Positions 17,628-59,403 of a stretch of 64,000 nt of DNA are shown here, one piece after another. Numbering within the stretch: the stretch's first letter is position 1; each line of letters begins with the position of its first letter. The DNA is from Aggregatilineales bacterium. GTDB lineage: Bacteria; Chloroflexota; Anaerolineae; Aggregatilineales; Ch27. The notes below the pieces were generated by a model, which made no database searches, was not told the origin of the DNA, and saw only the letters and a list, made by a program, of their open reading frames with translations. The DNA lies in NCBI GenBank assembly GCA_029976025.1, contig JARKNX010000025.1:184-64183 (forward strand). Direction: 5' to 3'. The position numbers and the translations under genes are program-made.

Positions 17628-17643
17628 AGCCTAACTCCTCAAA

Positions 17644-41976: not shown

Positions 41977-41986
41977 GGTATAGACA
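41977..41986. promoter_or_regulatory. Operator-like box GGTATAGACA (reverse complement TGTCTATACC)
   Basis: Matches TGTATAGACA at 9/10. Lies downstream of the predicted minus-strand promoter and 32 nt upstream of the ferritin-like gene start. Confidence 0.55.
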
Positions 41987-42007
41987 ATTAACGGAATGAT
42001 CACAACA

Positions 42008-42080: not shown

Positions 42081-42110
42081 TTGACGAAAGCAGGCAACCT
42101 GGCCCATAAT
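42081..42110 (+). promoter_or_regulatory. Sigma70-like promoter of the URO-D/GH38/ABC operon
   Basis: TTGACG (42081-42086), an 18-nt spacer, then CATAAT (42105-42110). Confidence 0.55.
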
Positions 42111-42115
42111 GAGAA

Positions 42116-42125
42116 TGTCTATACA
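42116..42125. promoter_or_regulatory. Operator box TGTCTATACA (within near-palindrome AATGTCTATACATT)
   Basis: Exact 10-mer located 5 nt downstream of the -10, covering the predicted transcription start. The 14-mer is palindromic at 6 of 7 pairs. Confidence 0.65.
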
Positions 42126-42147
42126 TTTTATGACGCTTCCTTCAGTT

Positions 42148-42158
42148 TGTCTATAACA
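42148..42158. promoter_or_regulatory. Operator-like box TGTCTATAACA
   Basis: A variant with one inserted A, located in the leader of the same operon. Confidence 0.4.
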
Positions 42159-42218
42159 GGGGTGGCGATCACAATAGCAGTCCTGGATCCGGTTTCTGCC
42201 TGACCAGTGGAGCGCCGT

Positions 42219-43373: not shown

Positions 43374-43474
43374 TGGGCACTGCGCCCTGACCCGCTGCAA
43401 GACATCACCTGGCCCCGCCTGCCTTGAGGCTCGCCACGTCGCTGGCCTCACCTGAACAGGGAGGAAAAACCGTT

Positions 43475-46249
43475 ATGTCCGTCCGTTATCATGTTACGGT
43501 TGTGCCGCACACTCACTGGGATCGCGCCTGGTATGTCACCTTTCAGGAGTACCGCATCCGCCTGGTGCGTCTGATCGATCGTCTGATCGATCTGCTCGAC
43601 CGCGACCCGGACTATTCTTTTTATATGCTGGATGGGCAGACCTCCCTGCTGGAGGATTACCTCGAAGTGCGCCCGGAACGGGCGGCTGTCTTGCAGGCGC
43701 TGGCGCGCAGCGGGCGGATCAGCGTGGGGCCGTGGTATGTGCTGCCGGACGAATTTCTGGTCAGTCCGGAAGCGCTGATCCGCAATCTGATGCTCGGCCA
43801 CCGGATGGGGGCGGACTACGGCGGGGTGATGAAAGCTGGCTATGTGCCCGACGGCTTCGGCCATATCGCCCAGATCCCGCAAATCTTCAACGGCTTCGGG
43901 ATCGACTCCGCTTTCTTCTGGCGCGGCGTCGGCGCCGAGGCGGACGAGATCGGCACAGATTTCGAGTGGGAGAGCAAGGACGGCTCCCGGGTGCTGGCGA
44001 TCTGGATGCCGTGGGGGTATCACAATCTGTCCAACGTGGGCTTCCCTATTCGGTGGGGCGACACGTCGCAGATGGAGTTCGACTGGGACCTGGCTCTGGA
44101 GCAGATACGCGGCGCGCTGGAAGAGGTGGAAACGCTCTCCAACACCGATGCCCGCCTGCTCATGAACGGCATCGACCACGCCGAGGCGGAGCCGCGCCTG
44201 CCGGAGTTGCTGCGGCGGGCTAACCAGGCCTTCCCGGAAGCGAACTTCCGCATTGGCACGCTTCTCGATCATCTGAAGAACGTCCGCGCCGCGGGCAAAG
44301 CGCTGCCTGTCTTCAGCGGTGAGTTCCGCTGGGGCCGCTACTCCGAAGTTCTGCAAGGGGTTTATTCCACACGGCTCTACCTCAAACAGCGCAATCATCA
44401 GGTTGAGACGCTGCTGGAACGCTACACCGAGCCGCTGACGGCCTTCGCCTGGCTGGCCGGCGGAGACCCCCCTGAAGGCACGCCGGACCTGGTGTGGACG
44501 GCCTGGCGGTGGCTGCTCAAGAATCACCCGCACGACGACATTTATGGCAGCGGCATCGACCAGGTGCATCACGAAATGCTGTACCGCTTCGATCAGGCTG
44601 AGCAGATCGGGCAGTACCTGGTCCGCGATAGCCTGCGCCTGATCGCCCGGCAGGCCGATTTCACCGGGCAGACGGGCACGCCGGTCCTGGTCTACAATCC
44701 GTTGAGCTGGCCGCGGCAGGAAATCGCCACCGGAGAGATCGACTTCGATTTTGACGATCCGACCGCCGAAAATTTCGTGCTGACCGACAGCGCCGGGAAC
44801 GAGCTGCCCTGCCACATTCTGGGCAGCGAAGAACGCACCTGGCTGGAGACGCTGAAGCCCAATCGCAAGCGCGTCGTCACGGTGGCCTTCCCGGTCTCAG
44901 TCCCGGCCTGCGGATACACGACCGTCTACGCCCGCCCGGGCCAGGCTAACCGCGCCCTGACCGGCGCAGGCAGCCTGCTGGTATCCTCCAACGGCGCTGA
45001 AAATGATTACCTGTCCTTCACTATCGCCCCCGATGGCGCGCTGACTGTTACCGACAAGATCACCGGCAGCATCTACCCCGACCTGCACACTTTTGTTGAT
45101 GTGGACGACGCCGGCGACGAATACAGCTCCTGCCCCTGCCCGGCCAGCCAGACGTTCAACTCCAGCGGAGGCGTGGCCGACATCCAACTGCTGACGGCGG
45201 GGCCAGTCCTGGCGCAGTTCCGCGTATCTCTGGCGCTGCAAATCCCGGCCAGCCTGACCGAAGATCGCCAGCGCCGGGCGGAGCAACTGGTCACTTTGCC
45301 GATCGTGTCCACGCTGACACTGTACCGGGGCCAGCCGGGACTTTACATCAGAACCCGGGTTGAAAATACTGCCCGCGACCACAAGCTGACGGTGAGCTTC
45401 CCCACCCCTCTGACGCCCAACTGCGCTCACGTAGACGCGGCCTTTCAGGTCAGCGCCCGCACCATCAGCCTGCCGCCGTCGGACGGCTGGGTGGAAGACC
45501 CGACGCCGCTGATGCACCAGCGCGCCTTCACGGATCTCAGCGATGGCGCGCGCGGGCTGGCTGTGCTCAACCGGGGCCTGCCCTCGGTGGAGGTGGAACA
45601 GATCGACAGCGGCACGCGCATCGCCCTGACTCTGCTGCGCAGCGTCGGCTGGTTGTCGCGCGATGATCTGAGCAACCGGCATGTAGCCGCCGGGCCATTG
45701 CTGGCGGCCCCCGGCGCTCAGTGCCCCGGCCCACATACCTTCGAATACACCATCCTGCCCCACGCCGGGACCTGGGAGCAGGTTTACCGGACAGCCGCGA
45801 ACTACCTGGCCCCGCTGCTCATCGCCCGGGCCGACACGCATGAGGGGATGGAGCTGCGCGAGATGCCCTTCATCGGCGTCGAGCTGGACTGGTACAACCA
45901 GGTGGTCAAACCGCTCGCCTGGCCGCGCGGGGGGCCGAACCCCGATACGCTCAGCTTCCTGACTCTGGAGCCGGAAACGCTGGTGCTCAGCGCGGTGCGG
46001 CGTAGCGCCGATGGAGCGGGGCTGATCGTCCGCTTCTACAACCCGGGCGAGGCAACTGTCCAGGCCCGGCTGCAAAGCTGGCGGCCGCTGAAGGCTGCCT
46101 ACCGCCTCAATCTCAACGAAGAGCGGCAGGGAGAAATCGCTCTGGCAGAATCCGGCCATCAGTCGCCCGGCGGAGGAGCCGCTGGCGTGGTTATCCCGGT
46201 GCGCGGGGGGCAACTGGTGACCGTTGAGCTGCGCCCACAGACTCCCTGA
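43475..46249 (+). CDS. GH38 alpha-mannosidase (cytoplasmic)
   Basis: ORF from 43424. ATG 43475 follows GGGAGGAAAAA. MSVRYHVTVVPHTHWDRAWY and GYVPDGFGH are GH38 N-terminal hallmarks. About 925 aa. Confidence 0.92.
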   Translation: MSVRYHVTVVPHTHWDRAWYVTFQEYRIRLVRLIDRLIDLLDRDPDYSFYMLDGQTSLLEDYLEVRPERAAVLQALARSGRISVGPWYVLPDEFLVSPEALIRNLMLGHRMGADYGGVMKAGYVPDGFGHIAQIPQIFNGFGIDSAFFWRGVGAEADEIGTDFEWESKDGSRVLAIWMPWGYHNLSNVGFPIRWGDTSQMEFDWDLALEQIRGALEEVETLSNTDARLLMNGIDHAEAEPRLPELLRRANQAFPEANFRIGTLLDHLKNVRAAGKALPVFSGEFRWGRYSEVLQGVYSTRLYLKQRNHQVETLLERYTEPLTAFAWLAGGDPPEGTPDLVWTAWRWLLKNHPHDDIYGSGIDQVHHEMLYRFDQAEQIGQYLVRDSLRLIARQADFTGQTGTPVLVYNPLSWPRQEIATGEIDFDFDDPTAENFVLTDSAGNELPCHILGSEERTWLETLKPNRKRVVTVAFPVSVPACGYTTVYARPGQANRALTGAGSLLVSSNGAENDYLSFTIAPDGALTVTDKITGSIYPDLHTFVDVDDAGDEYSSCPCPASQTFNSSGGVADIQLLTAGPVLAQFRVSLALQIPASLTEDRQRRAEQLVTLPIVSTLTLYRGQPGLYIRTRVENTARDHKLTVSFPTPLTPNCAHVDAAFQVSARTISLPPSDGWVEDPTPLMHQRAFTDLSDGARGLAVLNRGLPSVEVEQIDSGTRIALTLLRSVGWLSRDDLSNRHVAAGPLLAAPGAQCPGPHTFEYTILPHAGTWEQVYRTAANYLAPLLIARADTHEGMELREMPFIGVELDWYNQVVKPLAWPRGGPNPDTLSFLTLEPETLVLSAVRRSADGAGLIVRFYNPGEATVQARLQSWRPLKAAYRLNLNEERQGEIALAESGHQSPGGGAAGVVIPVRGGQLVTVELRPQTP

Positions 46250-46361
46250 CAGCGCCGTGGTGTCCGCACGAAAGGAGGTGCGCTCCGACCCTGGCTGGTT
46301 CGTCCGATGAAGCTGTACCCAAGAGGCTGCATAAGAGATCTGTTGCATTGGAGGAGTGAAA

Positions 46362-47621
46362 ATGTCTGAACAAATGTCACGCCGCAATTTCCTGAAGTCG
46401 AGCGCCGCCGCGGCAGCGCTGGCCGCCGCTCCAAAGATGCGGGGGCCGTGGGTGATCAACCGTCGCCGTCAGAATACCGTGGTGCTCAGAATCCAGGCCT
46501 TCGCTCATGAGGCTATCCAGGCGGTGCTGCCCCCCTTCCAGGAGTCAACCGGCCTGACCGTACAGTTGGATACCGGCCCGTCTTCCGGCGTGGAGCATCT
46601 GACCGAAGCGACCACTGCCTACGCCGCCGGCGACAGCCCCTGGGACGTGGTCAGCGATTCGGATGAAGGCGCCCCGGTTGAGGCGCGCGCCGGCTGGCTG
46701 GAGCCGCTTGATGGCGTGATCCCGCAGGAAACCTGGGACGACTTCCCCCAGGGCATGAGGGACGCCTTCCCCGTCTGGTATGGCTACGATGGCGCTATGT
46801 ATCGCGTGCCGCACGAGTTCGCCGTAGGCTACTACTTCTACCGCAAGGACCTGATCGGCGAAGCCCCCAAGACCTGGGAAGAAGTGATTGAGAAGGGTCT
46901 GGAAGTCACTGACTCCGCCAATAACGTCTGGGCGACGGCTGACGGCCTGACCAAGGGCGCGTTGATGTTCGTCTACCTGGCTTACCTGACCAGCCAGACC
47001 GGCGGCGATATCTTCGCCATGGACGATGGCCTGGCCAATGCGGCGCGCCTGCTGTACGAGATGATCAACACGTACAAGATCATGCCGCAGGACGTCATCA
47101 ACATGAACTACGACCAGCAGAACGAGCTGTATATGGACGACAAGGTCATGTTCATGCGCCAGTGGCCGTTCTTCCAGAGCGTGGCCGAAGGCAACGCCGC
47201 CTGGTACAGCCCGGACAAGGTCGCCATCGCCCTGCCGCCGGCTGGCCCGATGGGCGGTGGAAGCTGGTGGGGCGGCTGGGGCTTCACCATCCCCAAACTG
47301 GCCCCCAACATGGACGGCGCCAAGGCCCTGATCGCCTACCTGACCTCTAACGAGGTCGCCCCGCAGTTGGCCGCCGGGCAAAGCTGGTTCGTCATGCCGC
47401 GTACTTCTATCCTGAATGCGATGGCTGGCACCGGCAACCCGATTGTGGATGCGATGGGCATGTACGCCGACGCCGGCGTGATCAGGCCGCGCCCGTTCCA
47501 CCCGCGGGCCGCCGAGGCCCAGATCGCGGTTGAAGACGCGATCTCCCTCTACATCACCAAGCAGGCTACCCTGCAAGAAGCGCTCCAGACCGGCAAGGAC
47601 TTGCTGGCCGCTCTGGAATAG
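46362..47621 (+). CDS. ABC transporter substrate-binding protein (family 1) with Tat-type leader
   Basis: GGAGGAG lies 5 nt upstream of ATG 46362. Leader MSEQMSRRNFLKSSAAAAALAAAP. Confidence 0.88.
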   Translation: MSEQMSRRNFLKSSAAAAALAAAPKMRGPWVINRRRQNTVVLRIQAFAHEAIQAVLPPFQESTGLTVQLDTGPSSGVEHLTEATTAYAAGDSPWDVVSDSDEGAPVEARAGWLEPLDGVIPQETWDDFPQGMRDAFPVWYGYDGAMYRVPHEFAVGYYFYRKDLIGEAPKTWEEVIEKGLEVTDSANNVWATADGLTKGALMFVYLAYLTSQTGGDIFAMDDGLANAARLLYEMINTYKIMPQDVINMNYDQQNELYMDDKVMFMRQWPFFQSVAEGNAAWYSPDKVAIALPPAGPMGGGSWWGGWGFTIPKLAPNMDGAKALIAYLTSNEVAPQLAAGQSWFVMPRTSILNAMAGTGNPIVDAMGMYADAGVIRPRPFHPRAAEAQIAVEDAISLYITKQATLQEALQTGKDLLAALE

Positions 47622-47632
47622 TTTGTTCCATC

Positions 47633-47678
47633 CCCCTCTCCCGGCGCATTCTGCTGCTTCACTGCCCCGGGAGAGGGG
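47633..47678 (+). promoter_or_regulatory. Intercistronic stem-loop after the SBP gene
   Basis: CCCCTCTCCCGG (47633-47644) pairs with CCGGGAGAGGGG (47667-47678) in a perfect 12-bp stem with a 22-nt loop, followed by CTTTCCCTTGTT. Confidence 0.55.
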
Positions 47679-47716
47679 CTTTCCCTTGTTGATCTGCGAT
47701 TCAGAAGGAGTACGGC

Positions 47717-48643
47717 GTGGTCGCCAACGTCAGTCCCCCACAGGCCGTGACACGGGCCAGATCCCCTCAGCTTACCCTGAACCAGCGACGCTACCTGGCG
47801 GCAGCCCTGCTGCTGGCACCGGTCATTCTGCTGCGTCTGTTCACCACCTTATATCCGTTCCTACAGACGATAGTGCTCAGCTTTCATGAATACAACCCCG
47901 CCTTCACCCCCCGCACCTATGTCGGGCTGGAGAACTTTGAGAAGATCGCGGCGGATATCGTGGTCAAGAGCAGTATCGAATTTACGCTGATCTTCGTCTT
48001 CGGTTCGACATTCTTCCAGCTCTTCTTCGGCGTGATGGTCGCTTCCCTGCTGAACAGCCGGCTGCGGATACCGAACTTCATCCGCACCATCAACCTGATT
48101 CCCTGGGCTATCCCCATGGTTGTGGCGGCGGTCGGCTGGCGCTGGATGTTCGACGGCAACTATGGCTGGATCGTCGATCTGCTGCGGCGCATCGGCCTGC
48201 AGATCAACTGGCTGACCGATCCGGCCAGCGCGCGGGTCGCGATCCTGATCGTCGCCATCTGGAAGAGCACGCCTTTCGTCGCCGTGTCCATCCTGGCCGG
48301 CTTGCAGGGCGTCCCGGAGGAATTATACGAAGCGGCCAAGGTGGATGGCGCCAACGCCTGGCAGTCCTTCTGGGGGATCACGCTGCCTCTGATCATGCCC
48401 CTGATGGTGACCATTGGCATGTTCATGCTGGTCTGGCAACTGGCCGTCTTCGACCTGCCCTATACCATGACCGCTGGCGGCCCCGGCTTCGCTACCAGCG
48501 TGCTGGCCTACCAGGTGCAGCAAAAAGTGGTCACGTTGAACTACGGCTACGCTTCAGCAATCAGCGTCATCATGTTCCTGATCGTCGGCCTGATCGGCGC
48601 CCTCGGGCTGGCCGCTTTCCGCCGCGTCCAGGTTTCGATGTAA
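47717..48643 (+). CDS. ABC sugar permease (MalF type)
   Basis: GTG start after GAAGGAG. EAA loop YEAAKVDGANAWQSFWGITLPLI. Confidence 0.9.
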   Translation: MVANVSPPQAVTRARSPQLTLNQRRYLAAALLLAPVILLRLFTTLYPFLQTIVLSFHEYNPAFTPRTYVGLENFEKIAADIVVKSSIEFTLIFVFGSTFFQLFFGVMVASLLNSRLRIPNFIRTINLIPWAIPMVVAAVGWRWMFDGNYGWIVDLLRRIGLQINWLTDPASARVAILIVAIWKSTPFVAVSILAGLQGVPEELYEAAKVDGANAWQSFWGITLPLIMPLMVTIGMFMLVWQLAVFDLPYTMTAGGPGFATSVLAYQVQQKVVTLNYGYASAISVIMFLIVGLIGALGLAAFRRVQVSM

Positions 48644-48662
48644 GCAGGGAGGAAAACACGTT

Positions 48663-49508
48663 ATGCGCGCATTTCTACGACAGCACAACGGGCGAATCAC
48701 GACTTATGTGGGCTTCATCATATTCGCCATCATCGTGCTCTTTCCTTTCTACTTCATCGTCATCTCGTCTGTCACACCGCGCTACCAGATTTTCCAGATC
48801 CCGCCACGCTACTTCCCCGAGACGCTGACGCTGGAAAACTACCCCGCCATGATGAACGCCATACCGTTCTGGCAGTTCTATCTGAACTCCCTGATCTTCG
48901 CCCTGGGCAGCACGATCACATCGGTGCTGTTCAGCGCCATGGCCGGGTACGCCCTGGCGCGGCTGAAGTTCCCCGGCAGCAACCTGGTCTTCCTGGGGTT
49001 GATTCTTTCTATCGCCCTGCCGCAGGTCGCGCTGCTGGTGCCAATCCGGGAGATTTACAACGCTCTGCACCTGAACAACACCTACTTCGGGCTGATCGTC
49101 CTGATGTCCAGCCTGGTCACGCCTTTCACCGTCTGGATCATGGTGTCATTCGTGCACCAGATTCCGGTCGAGATCGAGGAAGCGGCGCTTATTGATGGGG
49201 CGACAATCTGGCAGACGATTCTGCGCATCGTGCTGCCGACGATGCGGCCGGCCATCGCCACGATGCTGATCATCAACTTCATCATTAGCTGGAATGAGCT
49301 GCTCTACCCGCTGATCTTCGCCACTCGCAATGACACCAAGACGCTGAGCGTTGGCCTGATCTCGCTGGGCCGGGAGGCTATGGGGACTTCCCGCCCCTGG
49401 GACCTGATGAGCGCGATGAGCGTGCTGACTATCGTGCCGGTCATCGTCCTCGTCATCTTCGGACAGCGCGCCATCGTCTCCGGCCTGACGCGCGGCGCAG
49501 TCAAATAA
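48663..49508 (+). CDS. ABC sugar permease (MalG type)
   Basis: 281 aa with AGGGAGGAAAA RBS. EAA loop IEEAALIDGATIWQTILRIVLP. Confidence 0.9.
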   Translation: MRAFLRQHNGRITTYVGFIIFAIIVLFPFYFIVISSVTPRYQIFQIPPRYFPETLTLENYPAMMNAIPFWQFYLNSLIFALGSTITSVLFSAMAGYALARLKFPGSNLVFLGLILSIALPQVALLVPIREIYNALHLNNTYFGLIVLMSSLVTPFTVWIMVSFVHQIPVEIEEAALIDGATIWQTILRIVLPTMRPAIATMLIINFIISWNELLYPLIFATRNDTKTLSVGLISLGREAMGTSRPWDLMSAMSVLTIVPVIVLVIFGQRAIVSGLTRGAVK

Positions 49509-49535: not shown

Positions 49536-50669
49536 CTATTCTCCGCTGCCCGGGCGGCCGTTCATCGCCTGGATCGGGCCGCCGCTCGACCGGCGGATGA
49601 CCAGCCGCGTCGGCAGGATGACCCGCTGCCAGTCCGGCGCATCGCCGTTAATGCGGCGCCAGAGCACCTCCACGGCCACCCGGCCAATATCGAAAGTCGG
49701 CTGGGCCACCGTGGTCAGGGGCACATCCAGGTGAGAAGTGAAATCGAGGTTGTCAAAACCGACCAGGGCCAGATCATCCGGGACGTCGATCTTCAACCGT
49801 CGCGCGGCCCGGTAAACGGCCAGTGCGATCTGATCGTTAGCGGCGAAGATGGCCGTAGGGCGCGGCGAGCGGGAGAAGAAGCCGAATAACTGCTCCGGCT
49901 CGACAGAAGGATAAGCCTCCACCTCGAACGCCAGCGACCTGTCATCAGGCAGGCCCGCTTCGATAAGCGCCTGGCGATAACCGGCGAAGCGGTGCTCAAT
50001 GCTGATAGCCGGATCGCGCCAGGACACGAACCCGATCCGGCGGTGCCCCAGGCTGATCAGGTGCTGTGTAGCCTGCAGCGCGCCGCCGAAATGGTCGGAC
50101 ATCACATAATCCGAGGGGACGCCGCGCAGGTAGCGATCGATCAGGACAACCGGATAGCCGGCGCGTGTCAGGTGAACAATGGCGTTCGCATTGATCGAGT
50201 CCACGGGGTAGACGACGATGCCGGCCACGCCGCCCTGAGCGGCCAGAGAATCCAGCACCTCCGTCTGCTGCTGGGGATCATTGTTGACATGCTTGAACGT
50301 GATCGAAAGGCCGCGCTCAGAAGCGCCGCGCTCCACGCCCAGCAAGATCGTGGAGACGAAGGAATCGCGGACATAGGGCACGACAAAGCCGATTTGTCGG
50401 GTTTGCGCCTCCCGGACGGGGGGGCGGATGCCCGTCCAGTCCACAAAGGTCCCCCGGCCGCGCTCCCGCCGGATATAGCCTTCCTGTTCCAGTTTGCTCA
50501 GAGACTGGCGGAGCGTGCCGCGCGCCACGCCGAACTCGCGGCAAAGCTCCGGTTCCGGAGGCAGGCTTTCGCCGGGCTTCCATTCTCCGCTCAGGATGCG
50601 CTGGGTCAGGATAGCGCTGATCTGCACATACAGAGGGACGCCATCGCCATGCTTTAACGAAATGCTCAT
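49536..50669 (-). CDS. AraR-type regulator: GntR winged-HTH fused to a LacI/PBP1 sugar-binding domain
   Basis: 377 aa. N-terminus LPPEPELCREFGVARGTLRQSLSKLEQEGYIRRERGRGTFV (GntR HTH). C-terminal motifs IGFVVPY, GIVVYPVD, VVLIDRY, PTAIFAANDQIALAV and LVGFDN (LacI-type effector domain). Confidence 0.88.
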   Translation of the reverse strand: MSISLKHGDGVPLYVQISAILTQRILSGEWKPGESLPPEPELCREFGVARGTLRQSLSKLEQEGYIRRERGRGTFVDWTGIRPPVREAQTRQIGFVVPYVRDSFVSTILLGVERGASERGLSITFKHVNNDPQQQTEVLDSLAAQGGVAGIVVYPVDSINANAIVHLTRAGYPVVLIDRYLRGVPSDYVMSDHFGGALQATQHLISLGHRRIGFVSWRDPAISIEHRFAGYRQALIEAGLPDDRSLAFEVEAYPSVEPEQLFGFFSRSPRPTAIFAANDQIALAVYRAARRLKIDVPDDLALVGFDNLDFTSHLDVPLTTVAQPTFDIGRVAVEVLWRRINGDAPDWQRVILPTRLVIRRSSGGPIQAMNGRPGSGE

Positions 50670-50716
50670 ACGGGTCTCTATCCGGTGAACTACACGAGCG
50701 AGGCCGCGGCAATAAA

Positions 50717-50726
50717 TGTCTATACA
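50717..50726. promoter_or_regulatory. Operator box TGTCTATACA at the regulator gene promoter
   Basis: Exact 10-mer located 5 nt downstream, in the minus sense, of the predicted -10 of the regulator gene. This is consistent with autoregulation. Confidence 0.65.
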
Positions 50727-50731
50727 AATCG

Positions 50732-50760
50732 ATTATCTAACACTCCTGACCGGAAGTCAA
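50732..50760 (-). promoter_or_regulatory. Candidate promoter of the AraR-type regulator gene
   Basis: On the minus strand: TTGACT (50755-50760), a 17-nt spacer, then GATAAT (50732-50737). Confidence 0.5.
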
Positions 50761-50766
50761 CAGAGC

Positions 50767-50795
50767 TTGACGCGCCTCGGAATACACTTTATAGT
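50767..50795 (+). promoter_or_regulatory. Sigma70-like promoter of the 50922-onward operon
   Basis: TTGACG (50767-50772), a 17-nt spacer, then TATAGT (50790-50795). Confidence 0.55.
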
Positions 50796-50809
50796 TAAGT
50801 AACATGCGG

Positions 50810-50819
50810 TGTATAGACA
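50810..50819. promoter_or_regulatory. Operator box TGTATAGACA (reverse complement of TGTCTATACA)
   Basis: Exact 10-mer located 14 nt downstream of the -10 at 50790-50795. Confidence 0.65.
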
Positions 50820-50921
50820 AACATATTCTGCATGTACAGACGAAGTCTGGTGAACACCCTGACGTCGCAAAATCATATTGACCTCGCCCGCCGCACAGGC
50901 CCTCGAGAAGGATAACGAGGA

Positions 50922-52517
50922 ATGCATATCTACAGCTTTGATTTTCGCGACCCGGCATTTATACTCGACAGGTGGAACCTGTCCTTTCAGATCATCACCC
51001 TGGAGAACGTCTACGGTCTGGACCCCGCCCACACCACCGTCGAGGAAAACGCTGGCGGGTGGGACCTGCACTGCACTGCGTTGCGATGGGCCGGGCAGCA
51101 GCGGACAGCGCCGGGCACCTGCGAAGTGCGGGCGCGGCGCGATGGCGAGGGACGCCTGCGGCTGTCCGTCCGTGCGACTGCCCCGCATAAAATCCGGGTG
51201 GTGAAGGTCATCCTGCGCGATCTCCCCCCGCTGGCTATGCTGGACATGCTGGATGAGGCGCACGATATTCCTGCGGAAGGCGTAGTGGAGCTATACCCCA
51301 ACCGCCTGCGCCTGCCAGTGTGTTTTCTGCGCCCGCCCGATGCCGCCACGATCGGCCTGCGCAGCGAGGACCTGTCCTTTCGCAGCAAGCGCTTCGCCAT
51401 CTACCAGGAGCGCTTCGGGCCATTCGCCGATCGGTACGCCGTCGAATGTATCCATGAGGAGGATGCTCGCTGGTTCGACCGGCAGATCGAAGTCCCGGAC
51501 TGGGTGCTGGCGCAGCCGGCGGCTGTTGAGGCCTTCCGGGATGAGCAGCTTGCCTTTTATGAGCACAATGCCGGGCTGGCGCGCTGGGAGGCGCGGCGCG
51601 ATACGCCCGACTGGGCGCGCGATATCCGCCTGTGCCTGATCCTGCACGGGATGCACTGGTCCGGATATACCTTCAATACGTACAGCCGGATGCTGGAGAC
51701 TATCCGCTATGCGGCAGCGCGCATCGACGGGCGCCGTATTCTGGCTTACCTGCCCGGCTGGGAAGGGCGCTACTACTGGCAGTACGGCGACTACCGACCC
51801 GAGCCGATGCTGGGCGGGGAGGAAGGCTTCCGGCAGTTATGCGACGAGGCCAGGGCGCTCGGCGTCCATGTGATGCCGATGTTCGGCGTGAACTGCGTCA
51901 ACGCCTGGGCTCCTAATTTCCACGAATTTGGCCCCTCCTCTTACATGAAATCGGCCACCCGCAATATCTTCCTGGGCAACCAGCCGGACTGGGATATGGC
52001 CCGGGCGGGGGATACCGGCTGGCAGGCCTGGCTCAACCCCGGCGCCCCGGCCTGGCAGACTGAGCTGACGCGCCAGATTCTGACCCTGGTCGATCGTTTT
52101 GGCTTCGACGGGGTCTTTCTGGATACCGCCGAAGTGCGGACTAACGATCCTGACTTCAATGTTCGCGAGGGCCTGCAGCAGATCATGGGCCGGCTGCGGC
52201 AGGATCATCCCGACCTGCTGGTGACGGCGGAGGACTGGTGGGATGGCCTGCTGAGCATCTTCCCCATCTTTCAGCAGACCTCAAAATGGCGGCAGGTGCC
52301 CCCCTGGGTAGGGCGTTACGCGCGCCTGATCGGCCATATCTGCGACGGCGACCCGGGCCGGAACAGCACGGGCGTATTCGAATCCGGCTACAGCCCGTAC
52401 TATCGCCTGCCGGACACAGAAACTTATATTGCCAGCCTGGCTTTTGTAGAAGATACGCTGGAGAAAGCGCAGTCAGAGATAGATGCTGTCATCGCCCTGG
52501 CGGCAGCGCGTTCGTGA
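50922..52517 (+). CDS. Uncharacterised protein, putative (beta/alpha)8 glycoside-hydrolase-like fold
   Basis: 531 aa. I recognise no family signature. The alternating pattern LILHGMHWSGY, LAYLPGWEG, VHVMPMFG, FDGVFLDTAEV and LLVTAEDWWDG resembles strand-end motifs of TIM-barrel glycosidases. First gene downstream of the operator-bearing promoter. Confidence 0.7.
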   Translation: MHIYSFDFRDPAFILDRWNLSFQIITLENVYGLDPAHTTVEENAGGWDLHCTALRWAGQQRTAPGTCEVRARRDGEGRLRLSVRATAPHKIRVVKVILRDLPPLAMLDMLDEAHDIPAEGVVELYPNRLRLPVCFLRPPDAATIGLRSEDLSFRSKRFAIYQERFGPFADRYAVECIHEEDARWFDRQIEVPDWVLAQPAAVEAFRDEQLAFYEHNAGLARWEARRDTPDWARDIRLCLILHGMHWSGYTFNTYSRMLETIRYAAARIDGRRILAYLPGWEGRYYWQYGDYRPEPMLGGEEGFRQLCDEARALGVHVMPMFGVNCVNAWAPNFHEFGPSSYMKSATRNIFLGNQPDWDMARAGDTGWQAWLNPGAPAWQTELTRQILTLVDRFGFDGVFLDTAEVRTNDPDFNVREGLQQIMGRLRQDHPDLLVTAEDWWDGLLSIFPIFQQTSKWRQVPPWVGRYARLIGHICDGDPGRNSTGVFESGYSPYYRLPDTETYIASLAFVEDTLEKAQSEIDAVIALAAARS

Positions 52518-52649
52518 TAGACAGGGAAGAAACAGCAAGAAAGGAGAGGGCCAGACACCTTTGAAGGCACGTTTCAGCAGATCGTCACGCAGATGTCTCG
52601 CTGACGAACATACCCGTATAGTTACTTAGAACTCCTTTCAGGAGGAACC

Positions 52650-54029
52650 ATGAAAACGCGCAAATGGTCAATGGTCTACTTGAGCGCCCTGACGGTGCTG
52701 GGCATGCTGATTGTGCTCGGCTGGGCCGGGCTTAGCCCGCGTCCGGTTGCAGCGCAGGGTCAGGTCACGGTCACCCTGGGTTCCTGGGACGATGAGAATG
52801 GCAATATCCGTCACCAGGCCGCCATTAATGACTTCATGGCGGTTTACCCGGATATCACCGTGGAGATTCTGCCGAATCCTGGCGGCGACTGGCATACCCG
52901 CATCCTGACGCAGATCGCAGCCGGCGACCTGCCTGATGTCTATATGGCGGACTCCAGCTTCGTCCCGCTCTATGTCGAGTCTGGCGGTCTGGTTGATCTG
53001 CGGCCTTACATCGAGAATCCCGATCCGGCAATAGGCTTCGACCCCTACGAAATCTTCTACCCCGCTGTTTACGAGAATGGTTTCTACCAGGGCGATCCCT
53101 ACGTGCTGGCCAAGGACTACAGCACGGTTGCCATCTACGCCAACAAGGCGCTGTTTGATGCCGCTGGTATCGCGCTGCCTGAAGAAGGCTGGACCTACGA
53201 CGACCTGCTGGATGTCGCCCAGCAGCTCACGGTAGATGCCAACGGCAACAACGCCGCCAGCCCGGACTTCGATCCGGAGAATATCGTCCAGTACGGCATG
53301 GATCATCGCGGCGACTGGTGGCGCGGCTTCCAGACTACGATCTACTCGTTCGGCTCGCACACCATCAGCGATGATGGCACCACTCTGGACGGCTACATCA
53401 ACAGCCCGGAGACAATCGCGGCACTGGAGTGGATGCGCGATGCTGTGCACGAATATCACGTGGCGCCGAGCACTAACTGGATTTCGGCGCTGCCCGGCGG
53501 CGTGATGCCGCTCTTCCTGGACGGCCAGATTGCCATGATCTTCGGCATGGGCCCGTGGTTCCTGAGCATGCTGGAAGAACAACCCGCTTTCCAGTATGCC
53601 ATTCTGCCGATGCCGACCGGCCCCGGCGGCCACCATGGCGCCGTCTGCTGGGCGGGCTTTGGCCTGTCACCGAACAGCGAGCATCCGGACGAAGCCTGGC
53701 TGCTCCTGCGCGCTCTGGGGACCGAGATCGGCCAGCGCCACTATGGCGAGCACGCTCTGTCTTCGATGCCGATAATCATGGAAGACAAGACCGATCACCC
53801 GTTCTGGGGCACCTTCATCCGGGAAGCCGAATTCCTGGCTCCGCTGGATGACCTGACAAATCCCTACTACGGGCAGTGCGTCGGCACGCCGGCAGGCCAG
53901 CAGATCACGGCTGTCCTCTTCGGCGATGAGGGCGCAGATATGGATGTTGCGGAACTGGTCAACCAGGTGACGCCGGAGTTTCAGGCCTGCCTGGATAACC
54001 AGGGCGAAATGCCGGAATCCGGTAGCTAG
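52650..54029 (+). CDS. ABC transporter substrate-binding protein (family 1)
   Basis: 459 aa. Leader MKTRKWSMVYLSALTVLGMLIVLGWAGL. CAGGAGGAA RBS. Confidence 0.9.
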   Translation: MKTRKWSMVYLSALTVLGMLIVLGWAGLSPRPVAAQGQVTVTLGSWDDENGNIRHQAAINDFMAVYPDITVEILPNPGGDWHTRILTQIAAGDLPDVYMADSSFVPLYVESGGLVDLRPYIENPDPAIGFDPYEIFYPAVYENGFYQGDPYVLAKDYSTVAIYANKALFDAAGIALPEEGWTYDDLLDVAQQLTVDANGNNAASPDFDPENIVQYGMDHRGDWWRGFQTTIYSFGSHTISDDGTTLDGYINSPETIAALEWMRDAVHEYHVAPSTNWISALPGGVMPLFLDGQIAMIFGMGPWFLSMLEEQPAFQYAILPMPTGPGGHHGAVCWAGFGLSPNSEHPDEAWLLLRALGTEIGQRHYGEHALSSMPIIMEDKTDHPFWGTFIREAEFLAPLDDLTNPYYGQCVGTPAGQQITAVLFGDEGADMDVAELVNQVTPEFQACLDNQGEMPESGS

Positions 54030-54065
54030 CGTTACGCGGCTGGCGGACAGCCAGCAACAAGTGCA

Positions 54066-54091
54066 GCCAGGGATGGCGAACCATCCCTGGC
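54066..54091 (+). promoter_or_regulatory. Intercistronic stem-loop after the SBP gene
   Basis: GCCAGGGATGG-cgaa-CCATCCCTGGC forms a perfect 11-bp stem with a GNRA-like loop, followed by TTGCCGCTTTC. Confidence 0.6.
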
Positions 54092-54121
54092 TTGCCGCTT
54101 TCAACAGGAGAAGGAACGCCC

Positions 54122-55045
54122 ATGAGCAACATCCGCACCAGGATTCCTATCCTGAATCTGAATCCACGCGCCCGGCGAGAGGCGCTCGTCTTTTACCTGA
54201 TGATCTCGCCCTGGCTGATCGGCCTCGTCCTGTTCATTGTTTATCCGATGGCCCGATCGCTGTATCTATCCTTCACGCGTTACCAGATCGGCCACGAACC
54301 AATCGTGACCGGGCTGGGCAACTTCAACCGCCTGCTCGAAGATGGCGACTTCTGGCGGTCGCTCCGGGTGACGCTGCTCTATGTCCTCGGCAGCGTGCCT
54401 GGCCAGACCGCGATCGCTATCGGCATCGCCCTGCTGCTGGCCCAGAAAATACGTGGGGTGAACTTCTGGCGCACCATTTATTTTTTGCCTTCCGTCGTCA
54501 GCGCGGTGGCAATCGCCGTGCTGTGGTTTTACGTGTTCAACCCGCAGTACGGCCTGGTCAACACCCTGCTGGCCGCGATTGGCATCAAAGGCCCGGGCTG
54601 GGTGTTCGACGAAAACTGGGCTTTGCCATCGCTGATTCTGATGAGCTGGTGGACGGTCGGCGCTCAGGTCGTCATCTACCTGGCCGGCATCAAAGCCATC
54701 CCCCAGGTTTTGTACGAAGCCGTCGAGATCGACGGCGGCGGGAGCTGGGCCAGGTTCCGCCACGTCACGCTGCCAATGCTCAGCCCGGTGATCTTCTTCA
54801 ACCTGATTCTGGGACTGATCAACGCCTTTCAGGTATTTGACGGCCCGATGGTGCTGACCAACGGCGGCCCTAATAAAGCCACGCTGACTTATATGCTCAA
54901 TCTCTACAAGCAGGCCTTCGACTTCGGCAACCTGGGGTACGCTTCCACCCTGGCCTGGGTGCTGTTCCTCATCATCATGGGGCTTACGGCGCTGGTCCTC
55001 CGTTCTTCGGCCCTGTGGGTCTATTACGAATCGGAGCAGCGATAA
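54122..55045 (+). CDS. ABC sugar permease (MalF type)
   Basis: ORF from 54092. ATG 54122 follows AGGAGAAGGA. EAA loop YEAVEIDGGGSWARFRHVTLPML. Confidence 0.9.
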   Translation: MSNIRTRIPILNLNPRARREALVFYLMISPWLIGLVLFIVYPMARSLYLSFTRYQIGHEPIVTGLGNFNRLLEDGDFWRSLRVTLLYVLGSVPGQTAIAIGIALLLAQKIRGVNFWRTIYFLPSVVSAVAIAVLWFYVFNPQYGLVNTLLAAIGIKGPGWVFDENWALPSLILMSWWTVGAQVVIYLAGIKAIPQVLYEAVEIDGGGSWARFRHVTLPMLSPVIFFNLILGLINAFQVFDGPMVLTNGGPNKATLTYMLNLYKQAFDFGNLGYASTLAWVLFLIIMGLTALVLRSSALWVYYESEQR

Positions 55046-57009
55046 TGTCTACCATCGACGAGACCCGGCGATCCGCCGCACAGAACACCCTGCTGAATCG
55101 CCCCGGCGGGCTGCACCTTTCCCAGTCCACCGGGCGGTTTATCGGCAAGGTTTTCACCTACACACTGCTAACCATCGGGGCAGCGGTCATGTTCTTCCCG
55201 ATGTTCTGGATGCTGACCGCCAGCCTGAAGCCGGAATGGCAGATTCTCACCGAGCCAATCTCGATTCCATCCGAATGGGTGCACGTCCAGGCCGGCAATA
55301 CCGTCCAGGAACTCCCGCTGTGGAACACGACCAACCCCGCCGGTGAACAAGAAGAAGTCATCACTATCGGCACACGCCGCTACACCACCGTCATTGATCT
55401 GAACCAGCTCACGGAGGACATGCTGATCTCCGCCCCTGCTGATGCGCTTGGCGAGACGCAGCCGACCGAAGTGGGGAATGTGGTGCTGAACGTGCGAACC
55501 CTGACGCGGGAGGATGGCAGCCAGATTCCGGTCGCCTCGCTGGCCCGCGACGGCGGCAATATCCTCGTCGCGCCAGTGGAGGCGCTGACCGCTGTGGCGT
55601 CCCGCATGGCCCTGGCCGAAGTCAACGCCGGGGAGCGGGTCACGGTCGAGGTGGGCGATGCCAGCTTCAAAGGCCGGCAGGTATCGGACGGCCCTGCTGT
55701 GCTGGCGCTTGGCCCGGAGTCTGAGCTGACGATTGTAGGCCCAAAGGCGATTGCAGAGCAGGCGATCCTCGTCCCGGCCGAAGTCCCGGTCGGGGAAAGC
55801 CTGGTCCCGATCGGCAATACGGAGCTATTACATTACTCGCTGCAAGGCTACCCTGCGGATGAGTACTATGTCCAGTTAAGCTCAGAAACCTGGCAGCCGG
55901 TGATTGACCTGTCGGACGTAAACGCCAGCGCCTTTGCTGTGGAGAATGCGCGGCTTTCTGAAGAAGTCACGACCCGCACTTTCAATCTGGCAGCTATGCC
56001 AGTCCGCACCCTGACCGGGGAAGACGGAAGCCAGGCCGAGGTCGTAGTCCTGATCCGGACTGCGGCGACGTCGCTGGTAATCCCGGTGGAGGACGCCGGG
56101 TCGATCCGCCTGTCGCCGATCTCCAGGCTGGCCGAGCCGTTTGTGCTCAACATCGGCGGGATACCGGTCCGCTACCGCGACGACTATGTTGAGCATGGCG
56201 AGGAACAGAGCGTCGCCATTGTCGGGGAGCGGCTGAACATGTCCCTGGTCGCGCCGCAAACGGCAATTACAGAAGCCTTCGATGTGGCGTCCAATTCACT
56301 CACGCGTGTGACCCGGCTGCGCCTGTACTACGAGAACTATATAGAGGCTCTTTCGAAGGACCTGGGCGGGGCGACTTTCTTCACCTTCTTCGGCAATTCA
56401 ACCCTGCTGGTGATTCTGAACTGGCTCGGCCATTTCTTTTCGGTCACGGTCGTCGCCTATGCCTTCGCCCGTCTGCGCGCGCCGGGCAAGAATATCCTGT
56501 TCATTATCCTGCTCTCAACCATGATGCTGCCCTGGCCGGTCATGCTCATCCCCCAGTACGAGATATTCAGCAGGCTGAAGATGATCAACACGCTGTGGCC
56601 ATTGTTCATCCGCTCCTTCTTCGGCAACGCCTTCCTGATCTTTTTGCTGCGCCAGTTCTTCATGGGCATCCCGCAGGAACTGGAGGATGCGGCGCGCATT
56701 GACGGGGCCAATACGTTACAGGTCCTGTGGAATGTCATGCTGCCCTTGAGCAAGCCCGCTCTGGCGACCATCGCTATCTTCACCTTCTGGTGGACCTGGA
56801 ACTCGTTCTTTGAACCCTATATCTACCTGAGCAGCCCCAAAAACTACACGGTCTCGCTGGGCCTGGGCTTCTTCAAGAGCCAGTACCGGTATACGTTCCA
56901 CCTGCTGATGTCCGCCTCTGTGGTGGCCATCCTGCCGATCATTCTGATTTTCTTCTTCGCTCAGCGCTACTTCATCGAAGGCATTCAGCTCACCGGCCTG
57001 AAGGGGTAG
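55045..57009 (+). CDS. ABC sugar permease (MalG type) with a roughly 370-aa extracytoplasmic insertion
   Basis: TAATG stop/start overlap at 55043-55047. TM1 is FTYTLLTIGAAVMFFPMFWMLTASLKP, followed by about 370 non-hydrophobic residues. The normal MalG core then resumes (FGNSTLLVILNWLGHFF...; EAA loop LEDAARIDGANTLQVLWNVMLPL). Confidence 0.88.
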   Translation: MSTIDETRRSAAQNTLLNRPGGLHLSQSTGRFIGKVFTYTLLTIGAAVMFFPMFWMLTASLKPEWQILTEPISIPSEWVHVQAGNTVQELPLWNTTNPAGEQEEVITIGTRRYTTVIDLNQLTEDMLISAPADALGETQPTEVGNVVLNVRTLTREDGSQIPVASLARDGGNILVAPVEALTAVASRMALAEVNAGERVTVEVGDASFKGRQVSDGPAVLALGPESELTIVGPKAIAEQAILVPAEVPVGESLVPIGNTELLHYSLQGYPADEYYVQLSSETWQPVIDLSDVNASAFAVENARLSEEVTTRTFNLAAMPVRTLTGEDGSQAEVVVLIRTAATSLVIPVEDAGSIRLSPISRLAEPFVLNIGGIPVRYRDDYVEHGEEQSVAIVGERLNMSLVAPQTAITEAFDVASNSLTRVTRLRLYYENYIEALSKDLGGATFFTFFGNSTLLVILNWLGHFFSVTVVAYAFARLRAPGKNILFIILLSTMMLPWPVMLIPQYEIFSRLKMINTLWPLFIRSFFGNAFLIFLLRQFFMGIPQELEDAARIDGANTLQVLWNVMLPLSKPALATIAIFTFWWTWNSFFEPYIYLSSPKNYTVSLGLGFFKSQYRYTFHLLMSASVVAILPIILIFFFAQRYFIEGIQLTGLKG

Positions 57010-57081
57010 CGCGCATTGTCGTACTATAGCAGGCCGGCAGAGGGGCCGTCGCTCCGCCGCGCATAGACAGGTGAGACACGT

Positions 57082-59400
57082 ATGACAAACGCCCGGCAGG
57101 GGCTATCCAACGGACAAATGCGAGGGGCGCTGGTCGTTATCTTCGCCCTGTCGGGGGTCGGGCTGGCTTATGAGGTGGCCCTCACCCGGCTGTTTTCGCT
57201 CATCTTTCAGTATCACTACGTCTTCCTGATTGTGTCGCTGGCGGTCGCCGGGCTGGGCATTGGCGCTGCCCTGGCTACTCTGGCCGTGCGCGGCGAGAAC
57301 AGAGGCCCCGGGTGGGCGGACCTGGCCAATGTCGCCGCCCTGCTGACCCTGCTGCTGCTGGGAAACGCCGCCCTGCTGGCCCTGCTGCGCTCGGCCATGC
57401 TGCTTGTAGTCTTCGCGGCGGCGCTGCTGCCGTTCATCGCTATCGGTTTCCTGAACGCGGCGCTGTTCAGCCGTTTCGCTCGCAGGAGCGGCATCCTGTA
57501 CGCTGCGGACCTGATCGGCGGCGTAGTAGGTCTGGCCGCCATCCTGGTTTTGCTGGGCTGGATCGGCGCGTTTGACGGCGTCATTCTCCTGGCCGCTCTG
57601 TGCGCTTTCGTCGCCGTCCTGCTGGCCCGGATGGGTCAGGATCGGGCGCTGCAAAAACGGCTGGTCGCGCTGGCGGTCATCCCGCTCGCCATCCTCATCC
57701 TCAGCCGGCTGACCGGCCTGATCGCCTTTCAACCGGCCAACATCGCCGACGCCCCGCCGGATAAAACGCTGATGCAGACGCTTCAGGACCCGGAGGCGAC
57801 GTTACTGGAGACGCGGTGGGACCCATTCGCCCGCCTGGATGTGGTGGCGACCGGGGATGAGGCCGTGCGTTACGTATTCACTGACGCCGGGGCCGGCAGC
57901 ACCATGGTCCGCTACAGCGGAGATGACCGGGCGGTTCGCTGGCTTCAGCGGGAAGTCGCCTATCTGCCTTTCACCCCGGGCGCAGGGCAAACAGACAGCG
58001 TGCTGATCCTGGGCGCCGGGGCCGGCAAAGACGTGCTGATGGCCTACCTGGCCGGGGCGCAAACTATCACGGCAGTCGAGATCAACCCCACCCTGATCGA
58101 TCTGACCCGCGACGCCGCTGACTATAACGGCGGCGTGCTGGACCTGCCCGGCGTCGAGACCTTCGTCATGGATGGGCGCAACTATATCGAGCGGACAGAC
58201 CGCCTGTACGATCTGATCTACGCCAACATCGTCTACAGTCAGGCCGCCCCGCCAGCCAGCTCCGCGCTGGCGGAAAACTATATCTTCACGCAGGAGGCGC
58301 TGCACGCCTACTGGAGCCACCTGACCGAAGACGGCCGTATCGCTTTCGTCACCCATCACGGCATCGAGGGCGTGCGGCTGCTGCTGGCCGCCCTGACTAT
58401 GCTGCGGGACGAAGGCATGACGCTCCAGGAGGCGCTGGGGCATGTGGCGCTGGCCACACTGCGCGGCGGCGATCCGCAGACGCGCACCTCCGTCGTCCTG
58501 ATCACCCGCCAGCCGTGGACCATTGACAGCGCCAACGCCTTCGCCGGGACAGCCCATGCCATCAATGTCGGTCTGTTATATCTGCCCGGGTTTCAGGAGC
58601 TGGCCCTCTCCGGCCTGCTCTCCGGCTTCACCACCCTGAACGAGTACATCGCCGCCAACTCCGATTACAATTACACCCCCACCACTGACGACAGCCCGTT
58701 CTTCTACCAGTTCACTCCCGGCCTGCCGGGCGGGCTGTCCGACCTGCTGCTGTTGAGCGCAATGCTGATCTTTGCCTACTTCTCCTGGCTATCCTTCTTC
58801 TTTGTGCGGCAGGATGGCAGCCAGTGGACGCGGATCGGCCTGGCCCCCTATTTCGGCCTGCTGGGGGCGGCCTTCATGCTGATCGAAATCCCTTTGATAC
58901 AGCGCTTCGGCCTGCTGCTGGGGCAGCCGATTCTGGCGCTGGTTGTCGTGGTGGGCGCGCTGCTGCTCGGCGGCGGGCTGGGGAGCCTGTTCAGCAGCCT
59001 CGTGCCCACGGAGCGCATGCCGCGCCTGGCCGGCGCTTTCGCGATGCTGGTCGGCGCGACGGCGCTGCTTTCGCTGGCCCTTTACCCGGCCCTGATACGC
59101 TGGGCGCTGCCCTTTGAGCTGCCCGCCCGGGTGGCGGTCACCATCGCCGCCCTGCTGCCGGCCGGCTTCCTGATGGGCGTGTGCTTCCCCGGCGGCCTGC
59201 GCGTCGCTCACCAGGTGGACCCGCGAGCCATACCCGCCTTCTACGGCAGCAATGCCGTGACATCTGTGCTCGGCTCAGCCCTGGCGATGGCGCTGGCGAT
59301 CAGCATCGGCTTTTCGGCGGCTCTGGTCCTGGGCGCAGTATTTTACGGCCTGGCCGCCGCTCTGGCTTTCCTGACCTGGCCCCGTATGCTTGCGAGGTAA
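57082..59400 (+). CDS. Polytopic membrane protein fused to a spermidine-synthase-like (class I SAM-fold) domain
   Basis: 772 aa. About 7 N-terminal and about 6 C-terminal hydrophobic spans flank a soluble domain with VLILGAGAGKDVLMAYLAGAQTITAVEINPTLIDLTRD...FVMDGRNYI...YDLIY. Confidence 0.8.
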   Translation: MTNARQGLSNGQMRGALVVIFALSGVGLAYEVALTRLFSLIFQYHYVFLIVSLAVAGLGIGAALATLAVRGENRGPGWADLANVAALLTLLLLGNAALLALLRSAMLLVVFAAALLPFIAIGFLNAALFSRFARRSGILYAADLIGGVVGLAAILVLLGWIGAFDGVILLAALCAFVAVLLARMGQDRALQKRLVALAVIPLAILILSRLTGLIAFQPANIADAPPDKTLMQTLQDPEATLLETRWDPFARLDVVATGDEAVRYVFTDAGAGSTMVRYSGDDRAVRWLQREVAYLPFTPGAGQTDSVLILGAGAGKDVLMAYLAGAQTITAVEINPTLIDLTRDAADYNGGVLDLPGVETFVMDGRNYIERTDRLYDLIYANIVYSQAAPPASSALAENYIFTQEALHAYWSHLTEDGRIAFVTHHGIEGVRLLLAALTMLRDEGMTLQEALGHVALATLRGGDPQTRTSVVLITRQPWTIDSANAFAGTAHAINVGLLYLPGFQELALSGLLSGFTTLNEYIAANSDYNYTPTTDDSPFFYQFTPGLPGGLSDLLLLSAMLIFAYFSWLSFFFVRQDGSQWTRIGLAPYFGLLGAAFMLIEIPLIQRFGLLLGQPILALVVVVGALLLGGGLGSLFSSLVPTERMPRLAGAFAMLVGATALLSLALYPALIRWALPFELPARVAVTIAALLPAGFLMGVCFPGGLRVAHQVDPRAIPAFYGSNAVTSVLGSALAMALAISIGFSAALVLGAVFYGLAAALAFLTWPRMLAR

Positions 59401-59403
59401 TTT

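Follow-up and report, generated by a model that had tools for sequence, protein, structure and literature searches.

Near-palindromic boxes as predicted operators of a GntR/LacI-type regulator and its neighbouring glycan operons in Aggregatilineales

Introduction

In the window studied here (the whole analysed stretch of DNA, 64 kb), the gene of an AraR-type regulator is located between two glycan operons, and one short box is repeated in the promoter regions on both sides of this gene. This raises the question of whether the boxes are the operators of the adjacent regulator and how far the regulon controlled through them would extend. The reading favoured below, with a probability of about 0.85, is that the boxes containing TGTCTATACA serve as operators of the regulator encoded at 49536-50669, which would act as a sugar-released repressor of its own gene and of the glycan operons.

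The best-described system of similar build is AraR of B. subtilis, which combines a GntR wHTH with a LacI/GalR-type sensor and recognizes the 16-bp palindrome ATTTGTACGTACAAAT (PMC1950556, PMC3592433). AraR has a single box at araR and at abnA; at the catabolic promoters, two boxes in phase with each other are bound cooperatively (PMC1950556, PMC3592433). The operator signature of the GntR regulators has been given as (N)GT-Nx-AC(N) (PMC1950556). No description of the regulon considered here was found in the literature on AraR, Chloroflexi, GH38/mannosidase or GntR-LacI chimeras.

The box and its copies in the window

An exact search of the window returned three copies of TGTCTATACA, at 42116-42125 and 50717-50726 on the forward strand and at 50810-50819 on the reverse strand, which are the three that the initial annotation had listed. 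In dinucleotide-preserving shuffles, the mean number of matches was 0.01, and three copies were reached in 0 of 100. The earlier expectation of about 0.1 per 64 kb was right as to the rarity of the motif but too high as a figure, because the box is A+T-rich while the G+C content of the window is 62.7%. The copies at 50717 and 50810 do lie on opposite strands, as had been stated; this orientation carries little meaning, however, since the box is quasi-palindromic (TGTMTAKACA) and nearly symmetric. The inverted repeat formed by these two copies is exactly 10 nt long, and the flanks add nothing to it. A longer inverted repeat or the end of a mobile element was therefore rejected as the source of the pair. 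A direct 10-mer repeat (TCCGGTGAAC and TCTGGTGAAC, at 50681-50690 and 50846-50855) is also present on either side of the box region and is probably due to chance.

The 10-mer forms the middle of a near-palindrome of 16 bp, whose symmetrised ortholog consensus with flanks is AATTGTATATACAATT. The core consensus is TGT[A/C]TA[T/G]ACA, with GT..TA..AC being invariant in 21 ortholog sites. The box, a palindrome of about 16 bp, matches the GntR operator signature GT-N-AC and also contains the core of HutC-type operators, GT-n-TA-n-AC.

A search tolerating mismatches added copies at 41977 (one mismatch), 42148 and 50833 as well as a cluster at 19307/19361/19425. Furthermore, a 16-bp PWM was trained on the regulator-ortholog sites of other genomes with the window left out. 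It returned eight window sites of at least 10 bits against 0.4 in shuffles, seven of which fall within promoter regions of the operons described below. The top score in the window belongs to the site at 50714 (26.8 bits), followed by 42113 (23.5 bits), 41974 (20.2 bits), 19422 (18.3 bits), 46360 (15.7 bits), 50807 (15.0 bits), 19304 (13.2 bits) and 19358 (11.5 bits). The earlier list of three exact copies was thus correct but incomplete, since sites at 50833, 41977, 42148, 19304, 19358, 19422 and possibly 46360 have to be added to it.

The regulator gene and its promoter

The regulator gene (49536..50669, reverse strand) encodes a protein of 377 aa with a GntR wHTH and a sensor of the LacI/periplasmic-binding-protein type. 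The N-terminus matches Pfam GntR (PF00392) at residues 13-76 with 3.7e-21, and the sensor matches Peripla_BP_3 with 9.6e-37, the models Peripla_BP_3/1/4 together covering residues ~90-362. Among PDB sequences, the DNA-binding domain is matched by NagR/YvoA (9e-14) and AraR (2.7e-8). The matches of the sensor are to RbsR (3e-42), CcpA (2e-31) and the AraR sensor (6e-28), those to the LacI family ranging from 3e-42 to 1e-30. The same combination of GntR wHTH and LacI-type sensor is common to all listed homologs. The homologs also assign the window to Chloroflexota, class Anaerolineae, close to Aggregatilineales. Judged by architecture, the predicted protein is a member of the AraR subfamily, and the label "AraR-type regulator" given to the gene earlier is borne out by its Pfam GntR and Peripla_BP domains.

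Closer assignments were rejected. Orthology with the arabinose repressor was dismissed, since the neighbouring box-bearing genes include no ara genes; the AraR model was absent among the best 25 of 43 NCBIfam matches. Strict membership of GntR/HutC does not hold, as the C-terminal domain is of the LacI/periplasmic-binding type and not UTRA. Nor does the protein belong to the LacI family in the strict sense, since its N-terminus matches GntR and not the LacI HTH with hinge.

The predicted promoter of the regulator gene (TTGACT-17-GATAAT, 50760..50732, reverse strand) and that of the 50922 operon (TTGACG-17-TATAGT, 50767..50795, forward strand) are divergent, with their -35 hexamers placed back to back and 6 bp between them. 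Both are sigma-70-like with 10/12 matches and were found as earlier described. The predicted operator of the regulator gene, O-R (50714..50729, AAATGTCTATACAAAT), carries the exact 10-mer as its core (50717-50726) and matches the conserved box of 16 aligned orthologs. It overlaps the predicted transcription start of the gene. O-R is regarded as a predicted autoregulatory site that is well supported in silico.

The right-hand operon

The operon to the right of the regulator gene, divergent from it, spans 50922..62073 on the forward strand. It encodes a DUF6259/GHL10-like protein (50922-52517), an ABC solute-binding protein (52650-54029), permeases (54092-55045 and 55015-57009), a 772-aa protein without family (57082-59400) and a GH2 enzyme (59404-62073, Pfam/NCBIfam). 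No informative PDB relative was found for the DUF6259/GHL10-like product of the first gene, and no strong internal promoter or terminator was detected within 50922-62073 beyond chance. The GH2 gene had been announced for this side by the initial annotation together with a GH35, but the search with Pfam/NCBIfam revealed no GH35 domain in the operon. The 772-aa protein may be what the earlier reader meant; this label is unsupported, as the protein matches no family and shows a faint spermidine-synthase/methyltransferase-like stretch alone, at residues ~300-420. Its homolog of 67% identity adjoins GH2 in locus L002. In the second permease (55015-57009, 664 aa), the MalG/UgpE-type domain is confined to the last ~240 residues, and the N-terminal extension of ~400 aa matches no family. 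The full length of this permease is kept in orthologous loci, e.g. L040 (9690-11618) and L067 (9819-11810).

Two predicted operators lie in tandem downstream of the 50922 promoter. O-D1 (50807..50822, TGTATAGACA on the forward strand) has the exact 10-mer on the reverse strand at 50810-50819, corresponding to about +8 to +17 of the transcript, and aligns with the first box of the orthologs. O-D2 (50830..50845, core 50833-50842, TGTACAGACG) begins 23 bp downstream of O-D1, has two mismatches and falls below the PWM threshold; it aligns with the second tandem box of the DUF6259 orthologs. The box first recognized at this promoter, O-D1, is thus correct, but the promoter has two boxes and not one.

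The left-hand operon and the DUF455 gene

The operon to the left (42207..49508, forward strand) is convergent with the regulator gene. Its first gene encodes a URO-D/MtaA-like protein (42207-43373) and the second a GH38 alpha-mannosidase (43424-46249), which is mannosylglycerate-hydrolase-like with 2e-154 but under the equivalog cut-off. A GH38 had been expected on this side of the regulator and was found there. An ABC solute-binding protein (46363-47621) and permeases (47717-48643 and 48663-49508) follow on the same strand. Between the solute-binding-protein gene and the permeases, a G+C-rich hairpin with a T-rich tract behind it is present at 47664-47685 on the forward strand. Attenuation or stabilisation within the operon would be a possible role for it; the count of terminator-like structures in the region is not above chance.

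The predicted promoter of this operon (TTGACG-18-CATAAT, 42081..42110, forward strand, 10/12 matches) is followed by O-U1 (42113..42128), whose core at 42116-42125 is an exact 10-mer that begins 5 nt past the -10 hexamer. O-U1 is followed 32 bp further on by a weak box, O-U2 (42145..42160, TGTCTATAAC, two mismatches, 6.9 bits); in L005, the UROD ortholog likewise has two boxes, 34 bp apart. Both second boxes, at 42148 and at 50833, score low in the window and are predicted mainly from the ortholog alignment. One more candidate within the operon, at 46360..46375 (AAATGTCTGAACAAAT, 15.7 bits, core off at two positions), overlaps the start codon of the solute-binding-protein gene (ATG 46363). It may be either an internal operator or a coincidence.

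The DUF455 gene (40725..41945, reverse strand) is divergent from the 42207 operon. A box with one mismatch (41974..41989, GGTATAGACA on the forward strand) lies 31 nt upstream of its start codon, and among its orthologs upstream boxes were found in eight loci (nine sites). The DUF455 gene is probably a target of the regulon, judging from these sequences. Together with DUF455 (40725-41945, reverse strand), two MtaA/CmuA-like genes with the URO-D fold, at 38986-40062 (reverse strand) and 42207-43373 (forward strand), are conserved neighbours of GH38 and of the regulator across Anaerolineae, where the box lies upstream of them. Such genes are not usually seen beside a mannosidase, and they may point to a pathway step not yet described.

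The third locus

A further target is predicted far from the regulator gene. An ABC-transporter operon (15776..19067, reverse strand), which comprises a solute-binding protein (17700-19067) and permeases (16683-17627 and 15776-16834), is preceded by a predicted promoter (TTGACA-17-TATAGT, 19404..19376, reverse strand, 11/12). Three boxes surround this promoter: 19304-19319 (13.2 bits), 19358-19373 (11.5 bits), which begins 5 nt past the -10 hexamer, and 19422-19437 (18.3 bits), whose core at 19425, TGTCTAGACA, is a perfect palindrome. Their centres are 54 and 64 bp apart. Boxes were also found at the orthologs of the 17700-19067 gene in L051, L068 and L069, and the operon is syntenic with regulator orthologs in L051, L057, L060, L068 and L069. 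The regulon proposed by the initial annotation, namely the operons flanking the regulator on both sides, was correct in these two members but too small, and the DUF455 gene and the 15776-19067 operon should be added to it.

A leader of ~300 nt (19068-19369, reverse strand) separates the promoter from the start codon of the solute-binding-protein gene at 19067. It holds a perfect 8-bp hairpin, AGAGATGC...GCATCTCT, at 19299-19273. In the orthologs, the boxes are nearer to the solute-binding-protein gene (43-177 nt).

Conservation across Anaerolineae

The conservation of the boxes was analysed in 78 loci encoding relatives of the regulator (871 kb), 76 of them from Anaerolineae and two with Armatimonadetes homologs of 31-32% identity. 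In most of the close orthologs (57-69% identity), TGTATAGACA, TGTATATACA or TGTCTAGACA is present 27-130 bp upstream of the regulator start codon. When 17 regulator upstream regions were aligned, the mean identity was 40%, and conservation was limited to three islands, namely TTGACA, GACAAT at a distance of 17-18 nt and, a few bases further, the box. The alignment is a textbook phylogenetic footprint of a predicted promoter with an overlapping putative operator. A box directly upstream of the regulator gene was not found in the close orthologs of L006, L009, L011, L018 and L020; autoregulation is therefore not universal. The DUF6259 orthologs of L005, L007, L011 and L018 have TTGACG and TATAGT upstream and, behind these hexamers, a tandem pair of boxes with a spacing of 22-24 bp; tandem boxes at a spacing of 21-24 bp recur at other targets.

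The 78 loci contained 122 sites of at least 12 bits. Thirty-six of these are located solely upstream of the regulator gene, where matches are circular since the PWM was trained on such sites; the non-regulator matches are free of this circularity. Of the latter, 71 out of 86, contributed by 43 loci, fall in the 350 bp preceding a homolog of a gene from the window cluster. This zone accounts for 9.7% of the sequence (binomial p of about 7e-57, a statistic somewhat inflated by the fact that intergenic DNA is A+T-richer than the genes in a genome with 63% G+C). Only three of the sites of at least 12 bits are inside mapped genes. The box was found upstream of orthologs of the GH38, DUF6259, URO-D/MtaA-like, DUF455, GH2 and ABC-transporter genes. 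The initial annotation had named conservation upstream of orthologous operons as the test of its reading, and the boxes were found to be conserved at the regulator gene and at both flanking operons. The autoregulation and the co-regulation of the GH38-side and GH2-side operons, which it had deduced from the three copies, are well supported in silico by this conservation.

These data bear on whether the boxes could instead serve another transcription factor encoded elsewhere, such as a GntR/HutC-family protein or a global carbon regulator, with the adjacent regulator binding other DNA. Cores of the form GT-n-TA-n-AC are common to many HutC-type regulators. Moreover, the loci were picked for containing the regulator, so that the linkage between box and regulator is partly built into the sample. 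However, most close orthologs have the box immediately behind the -10 hexamer of the regulator gene, where an autoregulatory site is classically found. It also stays with the regulator through many gene orders, in which the regulator orthologs are syntenic with GH38, both sets of solute-binding protein and permeases, URO-D-like, DUF455, DUF6259, GH2 and the 17700 solute-binding protein. The box was not found near the two Armatimonadetes homologs of 31-32% identity, and its variant at the regulator gene changes along with the clade of the regulator. Control by another factor is thus considered unlikely, and the adjacent regulator is retained as the predicted owner of the boxes.

The change of variant is seen in the clade of ~50% identity (loci L023-L076), where the regulator gene is preceded, at a distance of ~40 bp, by the box GGTATAGACC. 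The regulator has Lys at residue 40 where the box at its gene is GGT..ACC, and Pro/Ala/His where this box is TGT..ACA; the association is strong in the Fisher test. Residue 40 as the determinant of specificity is nevertheless taken as a lead only, because phylogeny confounds the association and the GH38-side sites of the Lys40 clade are still TGT-type. In the same clade, a conserved element, TTGTACAAGTT, follows the GGTATAGACC box, and the TGT-type sites between the GH38 and solute-binding-protein genes are followed by another conserved element, AAATATATAGTCAAC.

Position of the boxes relative to the promoters

All three exact copies of the 10-mer had been assigned to promoters, and each of them was indeed found 5-14 nt downstream of a -10 hexamer: the gap between the hexamer and the start of the box is 5 nt at 50717, 5 nt at 42116 and 14 nt at 50810. 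In a 20-kb scan, four promoter matches of 10/12 were obtained, three of which are the box-associated promoters. The fourth (42153..42125, reverse strand) is made of box sequence and is probably spurious. The strongest boxes are all located between the -10 hexamer and about +40; a repressor bound there would therefore block RNA polymerase or early elongation.

The regulator could also bind the boxes as an activator, or as a dual regulator at some of the promoters. The candidate site for such a role is the box at 19422-19437, which is located ~20 bp upstream of the -35 hexamer, and the imperfect promoter hexamers (10/12) would fit activation too. The strongest boxes, in turn, are placed as repressor sites usually are, the near-consensus promoters require no activator, and AraR and NagR, which are characterised relatives, act as repressors (PMC1950556, PMC4333415). 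Activation is for these reasons held to be very unlikely, and repression is the direction adopted for the adjacent regulator.

Boxes located downstream of promoters are all transcribed, and their placement relative to the -10 hexamer is conserved, as would be expected of an initiator, a discriminator, a 5'-UTR structure or another promoter-proximal or RNA-level element. Such a role is highly improbable, given that the boxes are palindromic, occur in both orientations and at variable distances, and in one case (19422) lie upstream of the -35 hexamer. In addition, no Rfam family was matched in the window at gathering thresholds, and the 5'-UTR folds are no stabler than shuffles (z-scores of -0.93 and +1.09). 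Finally, a chance origin of the three identical 10-mers, which has nothing in its favour except the small size of the motif, is practically negligible in view of the shuffles (0 of 100 with three copies, 0.01 expected) and the conservation of the box in dozens of genomes.

Comparison with AraR, NagR/DasR and LacI-family systems

As in the present system, the AraR boxes (ORA1/2, ORE1/2, ORX1/2, ORR3, ORB1) are 16-bp palindromes with TGT...ACA arms. The site AAATGTCTATACAAAT at 50714-50729 is identical to ATTTGTACGTACAAAT at 11 of 16 positions, with the mismatches being mainly central. The layout is also the same: a single box for the regulator gene and a pair for the catabolic promoters. On the other hand, the identity of the DNA-binding domains is only 35% in an alignment with an AraR N-terminal sequence that agrees with the residue numbers of PMC3592433. 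In this alignment, six of nine DNA contacts of AraR were found to be kept (Y5/Y14, E30/E39, R41/R50, T43/T52, R45/R54 and G62/G71; roles from PMC3592433), and three were changed (K4 to L13, H42 to G51 and Q61 to R70). Residues E39, R50, T52, R54 and G71 are conserved across the Anaerolineae orthologs; Y14 is His in many distant ones. In AraR, His42 reads the central G through water (PMC3592433). The centre of the AraR palindrome is CG, whereas here it is TA (or C-TA-G), and Gly51 in place of His42 is consistent with such a TA centre. The two systems further differ in that the tandem boxes here are ~22 bp apart and the regulon comprises GH38, GH2, DUF6259 and MtaA-like genes without arabinose genes. 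AraR belongs to Firmicutes, whereas the present regulator belongs to Chloroflexota, and its sensor is nearer to RbsR, CcpA and LacI than to the AraR sensor domain.

For the DNA-binding domain, the closest PDB sequence match is NagR (YvoA), ahead of AraR. The dre consensus of the HutC/NagR-DasR sites, GGTCTAGACC, has a core of the form GT-n-TA-n-AC, and this form is shared by TGTCTAGACA (19425) and TGTCTATACA. In NagR, Arg38 reads the outer G of the operator (PMC4333415). This residue corresponds to Pro40 here, matching the T found instead of G at the outer base, while Arg48 and Gly69 of NagR correspond to the conserved Arg50 and Gly71 (PMC4333415). Unlike the present regulator with its LacI-type sensor, NagR/DasR have an effector domain of the UTRA/chorismate-lyase fold, and their regulon, that of GlcNAc/chitin, is not the one found here.

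The LacI-family repressors RbsR, CcpA and PurR have a sensor domain homologous to that of the regulator, and they follow the logic proposed for the present system, sugar-released repression of glycoside hydrolase and ABC-transporter operons. They differ in using the LacI HTH with hinge and a CG-centred palindrome, whereas a GntR winged helix and another operator are found here.

Proposed mechanism

In the mechanism that we infer from the observed sequences, conservation and positions of the boxes, and which includes binding, direction of repression, cooperativity and effector, a dimer of the regulator would bind each 16-bp near-palindrome. By homology with AraR and NagR, the G in each of the TGT half-sites would be read by Arg50 of the recognition helix, and Gly71 of the wing would be placed in the minor groove. 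Repression would extend to at least four promoters, namely those of the regulator's own gene, the 50922 operon, the 42207 operon and the 17700 ABC-transporter operon, with the DUF455 gene as a probable fifth target. The regulator's own gene would be repressed through a single box, and the catabolic promoters through a strong box and a second box two or three helical turns away. The tandem spacing of 21-24 bp, about two turns, suggests that two dimers bind cooperatively at the catabolic promoters. The repressor would be released when its LacI-type domain binds a sugar, presumably a mannoside-derived product of the enzymes of the regulon.

Significance

A sugar-released, palindrome-binding repressor with autoregulation is a textbook mechanism and would be no surprise to specialists; here it is met in the little-studied Anaerolineae. 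For uncultured Anaerolineae/Aggregatilineales, the analysis provides a testable and well-supported regulon, with one predicted repressor, a 16-bp operator and at least four promoters in the window, and the same regulatory wiring is found in dozens of metagenome-assembled genomes. It also gives a lead to the function of genes that would be linked to GH38-dependent glycan use: DUF6259, DUF455, the two MtaA-like genes, the 772-aa protein and the permease with the 400-aa extension.

A broader reading joins two propositions. The first is that the regulator represents a Chloroflexota lineage of proteins with GntR wHTH and LacI-type sensor, in which the DNA-binding domain and the operator are of the NagR/HutC type and the fusion is distinct from AraR of Firmicutes. 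The second is that the conserved Anaerolineae regulon, where GH38 would always be accompanied by MtaA/CmuA-like proteins and DUF455, possibly serves an undescribed catabolic route. Taken together, the two are a tentative and rather doubtful proposal; if they hold true, the route may be one for, e.g., modified or methylated mannosides.
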